Virus record (IMG/VR): IMGVR_UViG_3300014208_000023
Span: 64,001-128,000 of that record
DNA from: a virus
Lineage: Duplodnaviria; Caudoviricetes
DNA: 64,000 nt
Reading direction: 5' to 3' (one strand)
This document shows, one piece after another, positions 1-4,323 of the stretch. The number at the start of each line of letters is the position of its first letter. The stretch's first letter is position 1. Both the position numbers and the translations under genes were made by a program. The notes beneath the pieces were generated by a model, which did no database searches, was not told where the DNA came from, and saw only the letters and a list, made by a program, of their open reading frames with translations.

Positions 1-89
1 TTGGAACAATCAGGGATTCGGTTATTGTGGAGAACCGATCGAGCCATTGCGGCGATCAGTAGGTCTCCAATCGTGGACGAGCACATCAT
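1..89 (-). CDS. hypothetical protein, runs off left edge
   Basis: ATG 89-87 overlaps the TGA of 86..283 (ATGA coupling); frame open to window edge (MMCSSTIGDLLIAAM...). Confidence 0.4.
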   Translation of the reverse strand, partial: MMCSSTIGDLLIAAMARSVLHNNRIPDCS

Positions 90-283
90 GCTAGCATCCA
101 CGATAGCAGTTTGTCAACCAAGAAGTCACTCTTGGACCTACAGCGCGGATCGTACTGAGGCTTGTAAACCACAACCAATCCGCACGGGTCTTCCAAGCAA
201 CCCTCGGGAATCCACGCCCACGACCAGCAGCGGCGAATGTCAGGTGTGGTTGAACATTCGCCGGCTTCGACTAGGGAAGCCAA
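86..283 (-). CDS. small hypothetical protein
   Basis: TTG start after GAGGA; overlaps neighbours at both ends like an operon. Confidence 0.4.
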   Translation of the reverse strand: MASLVEAGECSTTPDIRRCWSWAWIPEGCLEDPCGLVVVYKPQYDPRCRSKSDFLVDKLLSWMLA

Positions 284-456
284 TTCGTCCTCGGAAGGAA
301 GACGACGTTGGGGGAATGGGGGAAACCCATACCCTCACGCTGGAAGGGGTCGGCGGCAACAAGAGCCGCTTTCAGATCCTTGACCTTGACCATACCAAGC
401 TCTGCCTTGTGCTGAGCGTGGAACGGGCAAGTGTGCTGTCTGCAATCGTGATCCAT
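271..456 (-). CDS. small hypothetical protein
   Basis: GGAGGAGG SD upstream of ATG. Confidence 0.6.
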   Translation of the reverse strand: MDHDCRQHTCPFHAQHKAELGMVKVKDLKAALVAADPFQREGMGFPHSPNVVFLPRTNWLP

Positions 457-470
457 ATGTGTGGATCCTC

Positions 471-584
471 CTCCGTCTCAACTAGATACGACCGGGAGCC
501 TTTCTAGAATGCTCCTAATACTGGGGGAAAGTCTGGCAGTTGGGTTAGTGTCCAGTAAGTCCCCTGTATGTAGTTGAGACGGAG
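471..584. repeat. perfect 14-bp inverted repeat CTCCGTCTCAACTA / TAGTTGAGACGGAG
   Basis: Arms at 471-484 and 571-584; 12-bp core recurs at 2724-2735. Confidence 0.85.
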
Positions 585-620
585 AGGGATGAGGGATTGG
601 TTAGATCCCTCCTCACCTAC

Positions 621-800
621 TCACGGCTTCGGAATCTCCAATGACTTGATCCTCTCACCAGAGGTAGTCATGGAATGAGAAGTGTCAACCTTGCCGTTCT
701 CGATTACCCTAGACACCCAAAGATCCGCATCCGGGTAATAAGGACAGTGAGAAACAACGACGTAGACCGTGGAGTGTTCCCGAAAGAACTTCCCGATCAT
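621..800 (-). CDS. 59-aa hypothetical protein (not in ORF track)
   Basis: MIGKFFREHSTVYVVVSHCPYY...EIPKP; ATG overlaps stop of 797..994. Confidence 0.55.
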   Translation of the reverse strand: MIGKFFREHSTVYVVVSHCPYYPDADLWVSRVIENGKVDTSHSMTTSGERIKSLEIPKP

Positions 801-994
801 TCGACGTGCGCGATCTGAAAGACCTCTTCGGTCTCTCCGTCAACAAGCAACTCCTTCACCTTGTACGTGTGAAAGAGATGCTCACACTGAATAGCCGGGA
901 GAAAGTCTCTCTCGACTTCAGCAAGATCCTTGGCCCGTACGATCCTGACTTCCAGGGCGCACGGACCTTTGGCAGTGAGAACGAACAACGCCAT
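797..994 (-). CDS. small hypothetical protein
   Basis: GAGGAGG SD upstream of ATG. Confidence 0.65.
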   Translation of the reverse strand: MALFVLTAKGPCALEVRIVRAKDLAEVERDFLPAIQCEHLFHTYKVKELLVDGETEEVFQIAHVE

Positions 995-1005
995 GATGTT
1001 ACCTC

Positions 1006-1095
1006 CTCGCTATTACCTCTATCCGCAAGGGGTATTAGCTACCCCATCACCGCCCAGCTTTCTAGGACATAGTGGCATCTAGAAGTAATAGCGAG
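1006..1095 (-). promoter_or_regulatory. long leader stem-loop overlapping the SD of 797..994
   Basis: CTCGCTATTAC (1006-1016) pairs perfectly with GTAATAGCGAG (1085-1095); 5 further bp with a U-G wobble on minus; inner GGGGTA/TACCCC hairpin. Confidence 0.6.
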
Positions 1096-1184
1096 AAGGT
1101 AGAAAGGCTATGGCCCTTCCACCTATCTCCGAATGAGAGTAGGGCCGCGTTGGTTAGCGGGCGGTCTCATTCCCTGGTAGTGAG

Positions 1185-1212
1185 AGTGTAGGGAGCGGCG
1201 GCCCCCTACACT
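1185..1212. terminator. GC-rich hairpin downstream of 1228..1797
   Basis: AGTGTAGGG/CCCTACACT stem; no clear U-tract on minus, so role uncertain. Confidence 0.35.
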
Positions 1213-1227
1213 TTAGGCTGCGATGAT

Positions 1228-1797
1228 TCACGCCGACTTCCTCTTCTGAGAATTGCTCTCAGTGAGCCAAGCCGGACGGGGCTTCGACTTGTAGGCTTCC
1301 AACCTCGCAAGTCTGGCTTTGCGGGTCTCCTCGCTTTCCATCTTGGCGAAAGCTTCCGCTTCCAAGGTCGGAGAGACCGGGGGCGGGGTCATGGGCTTGT
1401 CGAGAGCAGGCGGCGGAATGAACCGCGCTTGCTCCCGAACAACCGGAACGAACGTGTGAGGAGCGCGAACAACCTCGCGCTCCTTCTTCGCGAGCTTGGT
1501 AGCCTCGCGCTTCGCCGTGGCCGATGCTTTCTTGGCATCGACCTTGGAACGCTCCTCCGGCGAGAGAGCGTTGTAAGCGGCGACCTTGGCTCGCTTCCGA
1601 GTCTTGATCGCTCGCTTCTCGGCGTACTCGGCCGCCAGCGCCTTCCGCTCCTCGTGAGAGAGGCGGATCTGCTGGCCGGTTGCGAAGTCCCGTCGGTAGT
1701 ACGGGATTCCCATCGGCAACTTCGGCTCGCTCGGTCCCTCGGGCACGACTGCAACCGCGAACGGTAGCTGAAACCTCGGATGCGTTCCGATATTCAC
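1228..1797 (-). CDS. basic Lys/Arg/Ala-rich protein with Pro-rich linker, possible nucleic-acid binder
   Basis: AGGAGG SD before GTG; 189 aa; no recognised family. Confidence 0.75.
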   Translation of the reverse strand: MNIGTHPRFQLPFAVAVVPEGPSEPKLPMGIPYYRRDFATGQQIRLSHEERKALAAEYAEKRAIKTRKRAKVAAYNALSPEERSKVDAKKASATAKREATKLAKKEREVVRAPHTFVPVVREQARFIPPPALDKPMTPPPVSPTLEAEAFAKMESEETRKARLARLEAYKSKPRPAWLTESNSQKRKSA

Positions 1798-1827
1798 TTG
1801 AGCCTCCTAGCAATTAGGTTTGACCAC

Positions 1828-1905
1828 CTATCTCTACCGGTAATAGAGGAGAATTGACTTATTGCCGCTACAAGAGACGGCATCCTTTATTACCAGTAGA
1901 GATAG
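1828..1905 (-). promoter_or_regulatory. long leader stem-loop upstream of 1228..1797
   Basis: CTATCTCTAC/GTAGAGATAG, CGGTAATA/TATTACCA, GAGGA/TCCTT and TGCCG/CGGCA stacked stems. Confidence 0.6.
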
Positions 1906-1909
1906 AAGG

Positions 1910-2729
1910 GAGAGTCACACTGCCAATGTGACCCTCACCTCCTACCCTTCGGGACCACTTATCTACGACGCCTTACGTCTCTCGCACCTCAGTCTCACCG
2001 AACCTAACGACTAGCCTGTAAAGCCAATCTGTCAGCTATCGCCTCACGTCTTCCCGGTACTAGATTAGCCATCCCAAGGGCGGCCCACCATTCCCAGGCA
2101 TGTAGACATTACTACGATTGCCTTTCTTAGATTCAGGAAACCTTGGATAGAAAGCACGTTGCCTCCGTCCTTAGCATCCCAGCGTAATCCGGCTCCAATC
2201 CTCCTATTGAAGCCTACGTATGGCGGTTTCTTAGACCTAGACCATCCCACTAGCTTGCTACTCATCCCTTGATTGTCCTATCGGATTGACTATTCAGCGC
2301 GGTACCTCTAAGGCCAGCGAGCTTGTCAGGCTCACACTCCAAAGACGCACGTTGCTTAGGCGATCCACCTTTCGGTGGCTGTCGAAAGTCTCCTCAGTCT
2401 AGCTACTCCTCTAGTCGCGCCGGCCGTTCCCTTGGAAACGGTTAGCACCTATTGGAGCCTTTGAAAGATTCAACTTTCCTGGCCTTAGTTCGCGATAGGA
2501 TCGAAAGGACCCCTTGCTTACTAGCGTTCGGTGCCGGGAACGGTTCCGGCGCAGTTTCATTGCTTGCTAGTAGGAAGCCCCTACTAGTCCGAGCGATATA
2601 TCCTCCGCTACCCGACTTTACGGGTAGTTACGGATTATGGCTGTATCGGGATAAACCCCACTACCCGTTAGGGTAGCCGCCACCGCTAGCAATGCTTTTC
2701 ACGGGAGTTTCGGCCCCGTGTTCCCGTCT
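1910..2729 (-). ncRNA. putative large structured ncRNA (GOLLD-like candidate); ends approximate
   Basis: No credible ORF; hairpins at 2700-2720, 2661-2676 (UAAC loop on minus), 2608-2627, 2567-2587, 2533-2550, 2365-2378 (GAAA loop on minus), 1914-1932; starts just below a sigma70 promoter. Confidence 0.6.
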
Positions 2730-2734
2730 CAACT

Positions 2735-2763
2735 AACCTAGCACCTACGCGCTAGGCTGTCAA
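2735..2763 (-). promoter_or_regulatory. sigma70-type promoter TTGACA-N17-TAGGTT with extended TG
   Basis: -35 at 2763-2758, -10 at 2740-2735, read directly. Confidence 0.75.
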
Positions 2764-2798
2764 GGTATGTTTAGACGTTTGAAAGTGTCGCCTTACGC

Positions 2799-2961
2799 GC
2801 TTTCCCTTTCTTCCGTCTCGCCGTTCACTCTAGCAGTGTTTGCTTTAGTGTCCAGCGGGTTTCGGAAGATTGTTTCGGCGCTACCTGCTTTCCTTTCTTC
2901 CGTCTCGCCGTTCACTCTAGCAGTGTTTGCTTTAGCGTCCAGCGGTTTCGGAAGATTGTTT
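2799..2961 (-). repeat. tandem duplication of a ~76-nt unit, likely a structured RNA module
   Basis: Copies 2799-2875 and 2887-2961 differ by one substitution and two 1-nt indels; each closed by TCTTCCG/CGGAAGA. Confidence 0.85.
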
Positions 2962-3217
2962 AGCAGGTTTCGGCTTTGGTTCCTTTCTGGTAGCGACTCG
3001 ATAGCAGGTAATGCACGACCCTTGCCAACCTTGACCGGCCCTATCAATCTGCTAACTATGCGACATTGCTAGGCTATTCGGTTTCCGCTGCTACTGGAAT
3101 TGGGGTGGTGGGGATTACTGCCACGGAAGTTTTTTTTATTATCTGTAACCTATTAGAATCATTACGGAAAAGTATCTTGTGTCAGAATTGTATCATTGGG
3201 ATCAATTGCTACAGTCG

Positions 3218-3249
3218 ATTACAGTGCCAGCGGATAATTACAGTGCCAA
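3218..3249. repeat. 12-bp direct repeat ATTACAGTGCCA x2
   Basis: 3218-3229 and 3238-3249, next to an AT-rich poly-T stretch. Confidence 0.7.
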
Positions 3250-3327
3250 CGGAATTCGCCGTTCCCGTAGGGTGTGAGGGCTGCCGCCCCCAGGCGGCCT
3301 CCCCTACTCACAGAAACGAACAAGAAT

Positions 3328-3374
3328 GATACGGTTAGGATACGGTTAGGATACGGTTGGACGGTTGGATGGTT
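3328..3374. repeat. decaying tandem repeat of GATACGGTTAG
   Basis: Two perfect 11-mers then three shortened copies, at the GC/AT transition. Confidence 0.85.
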
Positions 3375-3393
3375 CGTATGCGGCTGGGATAGA

Positions 3394-3672
3394 CTATCTC
3401 AACCTATAAGACCCAAACTGCTTAATCGTCTTTCTTCTATGACAATTAGCACATCTCATCTGACATTGAGCTATTTCTGCCACTAACCTATCTAACGAAC
3501 AGTTATTGGTTATAAGCCTATTGATACCATAGGACTTCCTGCCTACGTGGTCAAACTCTAATACTACCGGATCATTCTCTCCGCAATCTACACATGGATT
3601 ACTTAATAGATATCGATATACGTATTCTCTTTTTATATCAGTTCTTCTTTTATCACCAATCTTGTCAGCCAT
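3394..3672 (-). CDS. HNH endonuclease
   Basis: CVDCG...LEFDHV...RCANCHRRKT. Confidence 0.8.
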   Translation of the reverse strand: MADKIGDKRRTDIKREYVYRYLLSNPCVDCGENDPVVLEFDHVGRKSYGINRLITNNCSLDRLVAEIAQCQMRCANCHRRKTIKQFGSYRLR

Positions 3673-3693
3673 ACGTTAGATATATCCTATCCT

Positions 3694-4323
3694 ATGCAAC
3701 ACCAACTACTAGACATATTCCAGTTCGATAATGTAGATCCAGGACTGACTCCAAAGTATTACTCCGCCGATAATAAGAAACACGACATTCTAGTTATGAA
3801 CGGAGATGGTTCATTTCAAAAAGGAAAGCTTGGAGTAACACCTGACACTGGTATTCAGATTCCTCTCTTTCCTATGAGCGAACCCTGGAAACTATCTCAC
3901 AAGACTCCTCAGGGAATGCAATCACTACTTGAAACCTTCATTAGTTCTTTTCTTGGTCAGATAGAGCCTATAATGATAGACTCAATATTAGAGATTAAGA
4001 GCTACATTAACAATAACGGCCATATAGTAGCTGGAACTGCCATTAGGAATGCTGAGGGTATGGAACAGATATGTCGTGGCTACACCAATATCTATGAGCT
4101 CGTTAATAAGGCAGAGGCTAGCAATACCATTAATGACAGAAGATGTGTCTTTCTTAAGTCTATGGACCCCTATACAATAATGATTTGCCCGGAACCAGAA
4201 GAAACCGGGATATTCAGCTATATGGGCCATGTTCAACCAGGAACCAATAATGTTACTAATAGAGAAATTGGCTTCTTTTTATTACCGAAAGATATTAAAG
4301 TATTTAAACTCCAGGTAGCGTGA
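3694..4323 (+). CDS. hypothetical protein, possible miniature major-capsid paralog
   Basis: Shares P-x-Y, GxG, IPLF and ICPEP..G blocks with 7389..7991. Confidence 0.6.
   Translation: MQHQLLDIFQFDNVDPGLTPKYYSADNKKHDILVMNGDGSFQKGKLGVTPDTGIQIPLFPMSEPWKLSHKTPQGMQSLLETFISSFLGQIEPIMIDSILEIKSYINNNGHIVAGTAIRNAEGMEQICRGYTNIYELVNKAEASNTINDRRCVFLKSMDPYTIMICPEPEETGIFSYMGHVQPGTNNVTNREIGFFLLPKDIKVFKLQVA

Follow-up and report, generated by a model that had tools for sequence, protein, structure and literature searches.

The window analysed here is a 64,000-nucleotide stretch (bases 64,001-128,000) of the 428,320-bp record of an uncultured phage, whose 'direct terminal repeat' label has as its sole basis an overlap of only 22 bp between the two ends of the record. 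Positions 1-3400 of the window form the right-hand edge of a GC-rich early island of ~22 kb (genome 45-67.4 kb, 50-60% GC, genome mean 40% GC), which is densely filled with small minus-strand genes and has many RNA hairpins sitting between them, and the rest of the window codes for functions typical of jumbo phages (ribonucleotide reductase, NAD-dependent ligase, UvsW-like and DnaB-like helicases, PhoH and a tubulin-like protein). Some ~1.6 kb without a credible gene separate an HNH-like ORF (3672-3394, minus) from the first gene of the island (1797-1228, minus). This interval contains a large structured non-coding RNA, for which the minus-strand minimum free energy (MFE) was 9-20 kcal/mol lower than that of the plus strand in most 120-nt windows across 1861-2420, and, directly upstream of this RNA and of a strong promoter-like site (P1), the tandem repeat that is the subject of this analysis (Table 1). 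The HNH-like ORF (92 aa) gave a weak Pfam HNH-endonuclease match (E 0.004, below the cut-off) and, judged by its sequence, may be a homing endonuclease placed between the early island and the rightward genes. A search for tRNAs and tmRNA found nothing. None of the RNA-polymerase Pfam families PF00940, PF00562 and PF00623 was detected in the genome, which fits dependence on the host polymerase, with the limits that the PF00940 positive control also gave no match and that Pfam RNA-polymerase models can overlook very diverged phage polymerases, as in phiKZ-like phages. The tetranucleotide CTAG is 2.6-fold over-represented in window 1800-3400 (16 versus 6.1 expected), and five of the early island's eight minus-strand TGCTAG sites fall in this interval. 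Another GC-rich patch, at genome 140.5-142.5 kb, was considered as an RNA and rejected, as it is a 734-aa gene.

Table 1. Positions of the repeat, its units and the neighbouring elements in the window
Feature	Position	Strand	Description
Large structured non-coding RNA, ~0.8 kb (neighbour)	1900-2730	-	ORF-poor; strand-biased MFE; without Rfam match
P1, strong promoter-like site outside the repeat	2735-2763	-	TTGACA, 17-nt spacer ending TGC, TAGGTT; predicted start ~2728
Unit B, proximal	2795-2881	-	Core hairpin 2869-2809 and 4-bp basal stem
Tandem duplication, head-to-tail	2799-2961		TRF and repeat search
P2, promoter-like site inside unit B	2827-2854	-	TGGACA, 16-nt spacer ending TGC, TAGAGT; predicted start ~2820
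Unit A, distal	2882-2969	-	Core hairpin 2955-2896 and 7-bp basal stem
P3, promoter-like site inside unit A	2914-2941	-	TGGACG, 16-nt spacer ending TGC, TAGAGT; predicted start ~2907

A sequence-only reading of this region had proposed a tandemly duplicated RNA module, and the duplication itself was borne out by TRF (period 87, 1.9 copies, 96% matches, 2% indels) as well as by a repeat search of the window, which returned a duplicated core of 60 nt with 95% identity and a spacing of 87/86. The copy size of ~76 nt given in that reading was revised to 86-87 nt per unit, with a hairpin of 59-60 nt, and its span of 2770-3090 proved too wide: repeat and structure are confined to 2795-2969, and 2970-3260 showed z-scores of ~0 on both strands. 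The hexamer CUGCUA does occur four times on the minus strand, as had been stated (2831, 2918, 2961 and 3002); CTGCTA is also found twice on the plus strand (3049 and 3088), and 6 of the 26 matches in the window lie within 263 nt. The unit was found in two copies at this place alone in the 428-kb genome, both by BLAST and with a covariance model of the unit. Covariance-model and DNA searches of five jumbo phages whose UvsW-like helicases are ~45% identical recovered neither the module, nor the 1.6-kb DNA, nor the neighbouring protein. No match was obtained for an exact 25-mer in viral contigs or by blastn and tblastn against GenBank phages, the 14 matches of an 18-mer in metagenome contigs did not extend past the word itself, and the neighbouring proteins and a 189-aa neighbour alignment found nothing in viral, metagenome and genome contigs. 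The neighbouring gene (1228-1797) has six protein relatives that are 53-90% identical (P0004-P0009). A third, decayed copy upstream was rejected (alignment z = 0.01), and the P1 region did not qualify as a diverged copy of the unit under either of two scoring schemes (P = 0.26 and 0.056). The repeat is real but fairly ordinary: a non-coding, structured, recently duplicated cassette.

On the minus strand, the MFE structure of each unit is one long interrupted hairpin of 59-60 nt with four helices and 20 bp. Upward from its base, a 7-bp stem (UCUUCCG/CGGAAGA) is followed by a 4-5x3 loop, a 5-bp helix with one U.G (CGCUG/CGGCG), a 2x2 GA/AA loop, a 4-bp helix (CRCU/AGUG), a 2x2 AA/AG loop, a second 4-bp helix (AGCA/UGCU) and the apical loop AACAC, in which no known protein-binding motif was found. 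The closing stem had been predicted from the letters and is present in both copies (2955-2949/2902-2896 and 2869-2863/2815-2809) with pair probabilities of 0.89-1.0; the mini-stems predicted inside it (CGC/GCG, GC-UAAA-GC and CAC-UGCUAGA-GUG) gave way to the single long hairpin. When each unit was compared with 200 dinucleotide shuffles, it folded better than all 200, with whole-unit MFEs of -39.2 kcal/mol (z -8.0) for unit A and -35.1 kcal/mol (z -6.0) for unit B, and core hairpin energies of -27.5 and -28.0 kcal/mol (z -6.7 and -8.0). Although their flanks have diverged, both units are closed by a basal stem of their own, a perfect 7-bp one in unit A, formed by ACCUGCU (2968-2962) and AGCAGGU (2889-2883), and a 4-bp one in unit B, formed by GCGC (2881-2878) and GCGC (2800-2797). 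In a fold of 3100-1900 (minus) as one 1.2-kb RNA, both units remained independent of the large RNA, with pair probabilities of 0.97-1.0 for unit A and 0.89-0.96 for unit B, so that the self-contained fold claimed for them stands. Three differences separate the two cores, and all are structure-neutral on the minus strand: A/G at 2849/2936 gives G-U versus A-U in helix 3, an additional base at 2856-2858 is a 1-nt indel within an internal loop, and a single base differs in the 3' linker. These fold-sparing differences, together with the unit-specific basal stems, are the sole hint of selection, and as the copies are 96% alike, comparing them yields almost no evolutionary evidence. A kink-turn was considered and rejected from the sequence, as loops are present on both strands of the stem.

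The plus-strand units also fold, with energies of -34.1 and -35.6 kcal/mol (z -6.1 and -5.7), and the strand signal is much clearer for the large RNA than for the units. The helix-2 U.G, the helix-3 G-U of unit A and the two G.U pairs over P1 would be A.C mismatches on the plus strand; on the minus strand, which is purine-rich anyway, every one of the transition-type mismatches is a G.U (4/4, P ~0.06). The internal-loop residues are all purines on the minus strand, except the C's of AAAC(C), and the purine-purine internal loops of this strand become pyrimidine-pyrimidine mismatches on the other. The fold mildly favours the minus strand, a preference that is suggestive only.

To evaluate promoter likeness, ~856,000 genome positions were scored with a sigma70 matrix of our own, which gives approximate scores. 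By its sequence, P1 is a strong promoter candidate (score 13.55, with 37 genome positions as high), and P2 (10.74, 420 positions) and P3 (9.44, 1064 positions) are at chance level, as scores of this height are expected ~1 per 2 kb per strand, or with a chance of ~8% per 160-nt stretch. P2 and P3 share a TGGACR -35-like element and TGCTAGAGT, giving TGGAC(A/G)-N13-TGC-TAGAGT, and have the form of a sigma70 extended -10 promoter (a TAnnnT -10 preceded by TG at -15/-14, a spacer of 16 nt, and -35-like matches of 5/6 and 4/6), which they match no better than chance, with a G at the well-conserved second position of the -35. Both sites lie at the top of their copies. They rank third and fourth among the minus-strand sites in 2650-3750; no better minus-strand promoter-like site was found between 2960 and 3500, and no sigma70-like promoter that would transcribe both copies was found within ~500 nt upstream. 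A consensus scan listed P2 with the TG before its -10, and returned seven promoter-like sites in 1-4000 compared to 3.3 ± 2.1 in shuffles, which is not significant. In a regular-expression search of the genome, three such sites followed one another on one strand (genome 66941, 66854 and 66763, that is, window 2941, 2854 and 2763), with a P3-P2-P1 spacing of 87 and 91 bp and TGC-TAG at the -10 of all three; P2 and P3 thus precede P1 by 91 and 178 bp and are oriented like it. In P1, a 10-bp inverted repeat, AGCCUAGCGC / GUGCUAGGUU, takes up the spacer and the -10 and would form a hairpin with two G.U pairs in a transcript coming from upstream. The layout matches that of the repeat units, where the -10 region likewise supplies the 3' arm of the hairpin.

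The GC-TAG form of the -10 recurs in other high-scoring promoters of the island, at window 117 and, as AGC-TAG, at genome 48101. The island's best promoter match lies at genome 56364 (minus, TTGACA-16-TACAAT, score 14.8) and is followed by ~480 nt without an ORF, possibly another structured leader. In the AT-rich part of the genome, a strong promoter-like family with GC-rich spacers, (c)cTTGACR-N11-GTGSTTAYRWT, was observed at genome 418510, 412603, 396817, 395103 and 346123 (minus) and 95234 (plus), the last being one base shorter (GTGTTATATT). A sigma54 reading of TGGAC/TGGCAC was rejected from the sequence on account of the wrong GG-GC spacing.

The explanation that we regard as best, tentatively and as possible rather than probable, is that the repeat is a duplicated leader cassette which provides auxiliary upstream promoters, the read-through RNA of which would carry the next cassette as a stable 5' hairpin. 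An 87-bp non-coding cassette would recently have been duplicated in tandem at the head of the leftward (minus) early transcription unit. As DNA, each cassette carries an extended -10 promoter-like site of the host sigma70 type that faces the large RNA, and as minus-strand RNA it folds alone into a hairpin of about two helical turns. P2 and P3 would then act as auxiliary upstream promoters of P1, and a transcript begun at the distal cassette would have, as stable hairpins in its 5' leader, the complete proximal cassette and the hairpin of P1. These might protect the leader, or a double-strand RNase might cut them to give the same mature 5' end on all early transcripts, and the duplication would simply have raised the dosage of promoter and hairpin. 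Against the explanation stand the similar energies with which the hairpins fold on both strands and the lack of significant similarity between the unit and the P1 region.

It is somewhat unlikely that the units act only as RNA, being transcribed from farther upstream by read-through from the HNH-like gene or from an unrecognised phage promoter, and serve as a tandem protein docking site, as a small RNA in its own right or as an extra domain at the 5' end of the large RNA, with the promoter likeness of P2 and P3 due to chance. The strong autonomous hairpins, the unit-specific basal stems, the G.U pairs and purine-purine 2x2 loops that fit a minus-strand RNA, the chance-level promoter scores and the many intergenic RNA hairpins of the early island all agree with such a role, which is opposed by the want of a good minus-strand promoter in 2960-3500 and by the unstructured stretch 2970-3260, as a result of which the units are not continuous with structure farther upstream. 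It is also opposed by the AACAC loop, free of any known protein motif, by the lack of further copies in the genome or in the five distant jumbo relatives, and by the silence of Rfam: cmscan, which had been suggested along with the sequence-only reading, matched no family of Rfam 15 at the gathering cut-off in the 64-kb window or the upstream 20 kb, and a search at E <= 10 of window 1-4000 gave a single 14.8-bit chance match (2737-2766). The specific functions first suggested for the repeat, namely a second non-coding RNA, a sponge or a domain at the 5' end of the large RNA, found no support; neither an upstream sigma70-like promoter, nor a loop motif, nor an Rfam match was detected. That the units are a new, self-contained RNA module of variable copy number, transcribed together with the large early RNA of this jumbo-phage lineage or just ahead of it and resembling promoters only incidentally, is in our estimate unlikely; such a module might serve as a peripheral domain that can be expanded, or as a tandem platform on which a host or phage protein docks.

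We consider it distinctly unlikely that the repeat is a neutral product of recent slippage, with a second copy that has no role of its own and at most one ancestral copy, or neither, functional. The 96% identity of only two copies, the short CCGAAAC repeats at the unit borders, which could have mediated slippage, and the presence of the element in this genome alone among the collections searched would be expected from such an event. A hairpin quality far beyond that of the shuffles, the sparing of the fold by all of the few differences, and diverged flanks that still close their own stems argue the other way.

The palindromes might instead be protein-binding sites at the DNA level, serving P1 as operators or activator sites or belonging to a start of replication or packaging, which we judge quite improbable. 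The junction where the early island meets the AT-rich rest of the genome is indeed rich in repeats, with three other repeat families (a 17-mer and arrays of an 11-mer and an 8-mer) within 450 bp. The 17-nt motif TCCGCTGGCACTGTAAT occurs three times with <=3 mismatches (3084-3100, plus; 3218-3234 and 3237-3253, minus), as two direct copies and one inverted that bracket a 117-bp AT-rich stretch with a T8 run (0.09 expected by chance), a layout that on sequence looks like the protein-binding architecture of a regulatory region or an origin. Tandem arrays of GATACGGTTAG (x2.8) and ACGGTTGG (x2.8) lie at 3328-3374, exactly at the switch from GC-rich island to AT-rich genome. Moreover, in P2 and P3 the palindrome spans both spacer and -10, as does a comparable 10-bp inverted repeat in P1. 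Conversely, at 59 bp and with three internal loops, the palindrome exceeds in length and irregularity what would suit one dimer, and RNA is suggested by the four transition-type mismatches, each of which is a G.U pair on the minus strand (P ~0.06). No clean turning point of the cumulative GC skew lies here, which led us to reject a replication origin by this measure and also weighs against the DNA-level account.

That the region is non-coding, as the sequence-only reading had held, is very likely and is supported by codon log-odds and the lack of homologues. The argument given there, that 1-nt indels shift every frame, is wrong as stated: 87 nt equal 29 codons, and therefore two ORFs stay open across both copies, one of 101 aa (plus, 2767-3072) and one of 84 aa (minus, 3047-2793). 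For the plus and minus ORFs, codon log-odds trained on 13 island genes came to -0.39 and -0.01, respectively, compared to +0.18 to +0.66 for those genes themselves. No homologue of either ORF was found among 5.8 billion proteins, and a search of 1.84 billion representative proteins returned the minus ORF itself, listed there as a called gene, and two unrelated repeat proteins but no homologue of either ORF, although the same libraries contain the six relatives of the adjacent gene. A protein-coding origin, with the hydrophobic plus ORF or the minus ORF as a gene with an internal 29-residue repeat, is extremely unlikely, since its open frames, called gene and terminator-like hairpin with T8 run behind the plus ORF (3105-3137) are outweighed by codon usage unlike that of island genes, the lack of homologues, the absence from the sequence of a properly spaced Shine-Dalgarno for either ORF, a plus-ORF hydrophobicity that follows from T-richness, a Pfam F-box match (22.3 bits) that is a sum over the duplicated segment with no stretch passing alone, and terminator-like sites at shuffle level (4 versus 4.0).

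If the cassettes are real promoters or leader hairpins, they would help define the start of the early programme of a 428-kb phage, a programme that appears to lack a recognisable phage polymerase, and the layout would consist of tandem host-type promoters, a large structured RNA and a 22-kb run of small genes split by processing hairpins. This would be T7-like logic at a much larger scale, and the true 5' boundary of the large RNA would be fixed. Should the repeat be nothing more than a product of recent slippage, its importance would hardly go beyond that of a strain marker.

Within the genome itself, close counterparts of the units are the 'punctuation' hairpins of the early island, which lie on the same strand of the same island and likewise have arms that start pyrimidine-rich (CUUC-type) and finish purine-rich (GAAG/GGAGG-type). 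Both groups include a promoter-bearing case: genome 61840-61807 (window about -2160) is a near-consensus TTGACA-17-TACAGT inside an intergenic long stem of the CCUUCU...AGGAGG type, with a score of 14.2 that ranks in the top ~25 of the genome and an estimated chance of ~1.4% inside ~500 nt of intergenic stems, so that a promoter within a hairpin is not unique to the repeat units. The units differ from these hairpins in having no GC hairpin in front and no gene or start codon behind, and in their interrupted stem and tandem arrangement, compared with a near-perfect 22-bp stem.

Among known systems, N4-type early promoters have a 5-7-bp stem and a 3-nt loop and are read by a virion T7-like RNA polymerase; the units have an apical stem of 4 bp and a loop of 5 nt, and do not conform to this type. 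Nor do they resemble sponges of the CsrB/RsmZ type, which show many GGA motifs in hairpin loops, as the loop here is AACAC and each unit has its three GGA either at the ends of helices or in the linker and internal loop. With the large ornate phage RNAs GOLLD (RF01998) and ROOL (RF03087), the point in common is that the units lie beside a large structured phage RNA, of which they might in principle form a peripheral domain; the differences are that no Rfam family matches at gathering or at E <= 10 and that the units fold apart from the large RNA. Close parallels are found in phage T7, in which the tandem host-type early promoters A1, A2 and A3 are followed by RNase III sites, with R0.3 and R1.1 among the RNase III substrates. 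The units have the size of an RNase III site (a mostly double-stranded hairpin of ~20-22 bp), with 20 bp in four coaxial helices in addition to the basal stem. Like R0.3 and R1.1, they would give a phage early transcript a hairpin of 20 bp, about two helical turns, broken up by internal loops, but they are built of four short helices with two 2x2 purine loops, whereas the T7 sites have two long helices and one asymmetric loop. Compared to A1-A3, the upstream sites here are weak, statistically unproven, near-identical and located inside hairpins, and what is made first is a large non-coding RNA instead of the product of a protein gene; the two systems have no sequence similarity. The likeness to T7 lies in the arrangement: host-type promoter-like sites ~90-125 bp apart are all aimed into a long early transcription unit, its genes are parted by double-stranded RNA processing hairpins, and the leader hairpin could equalise the 5' ends of the transcripts.
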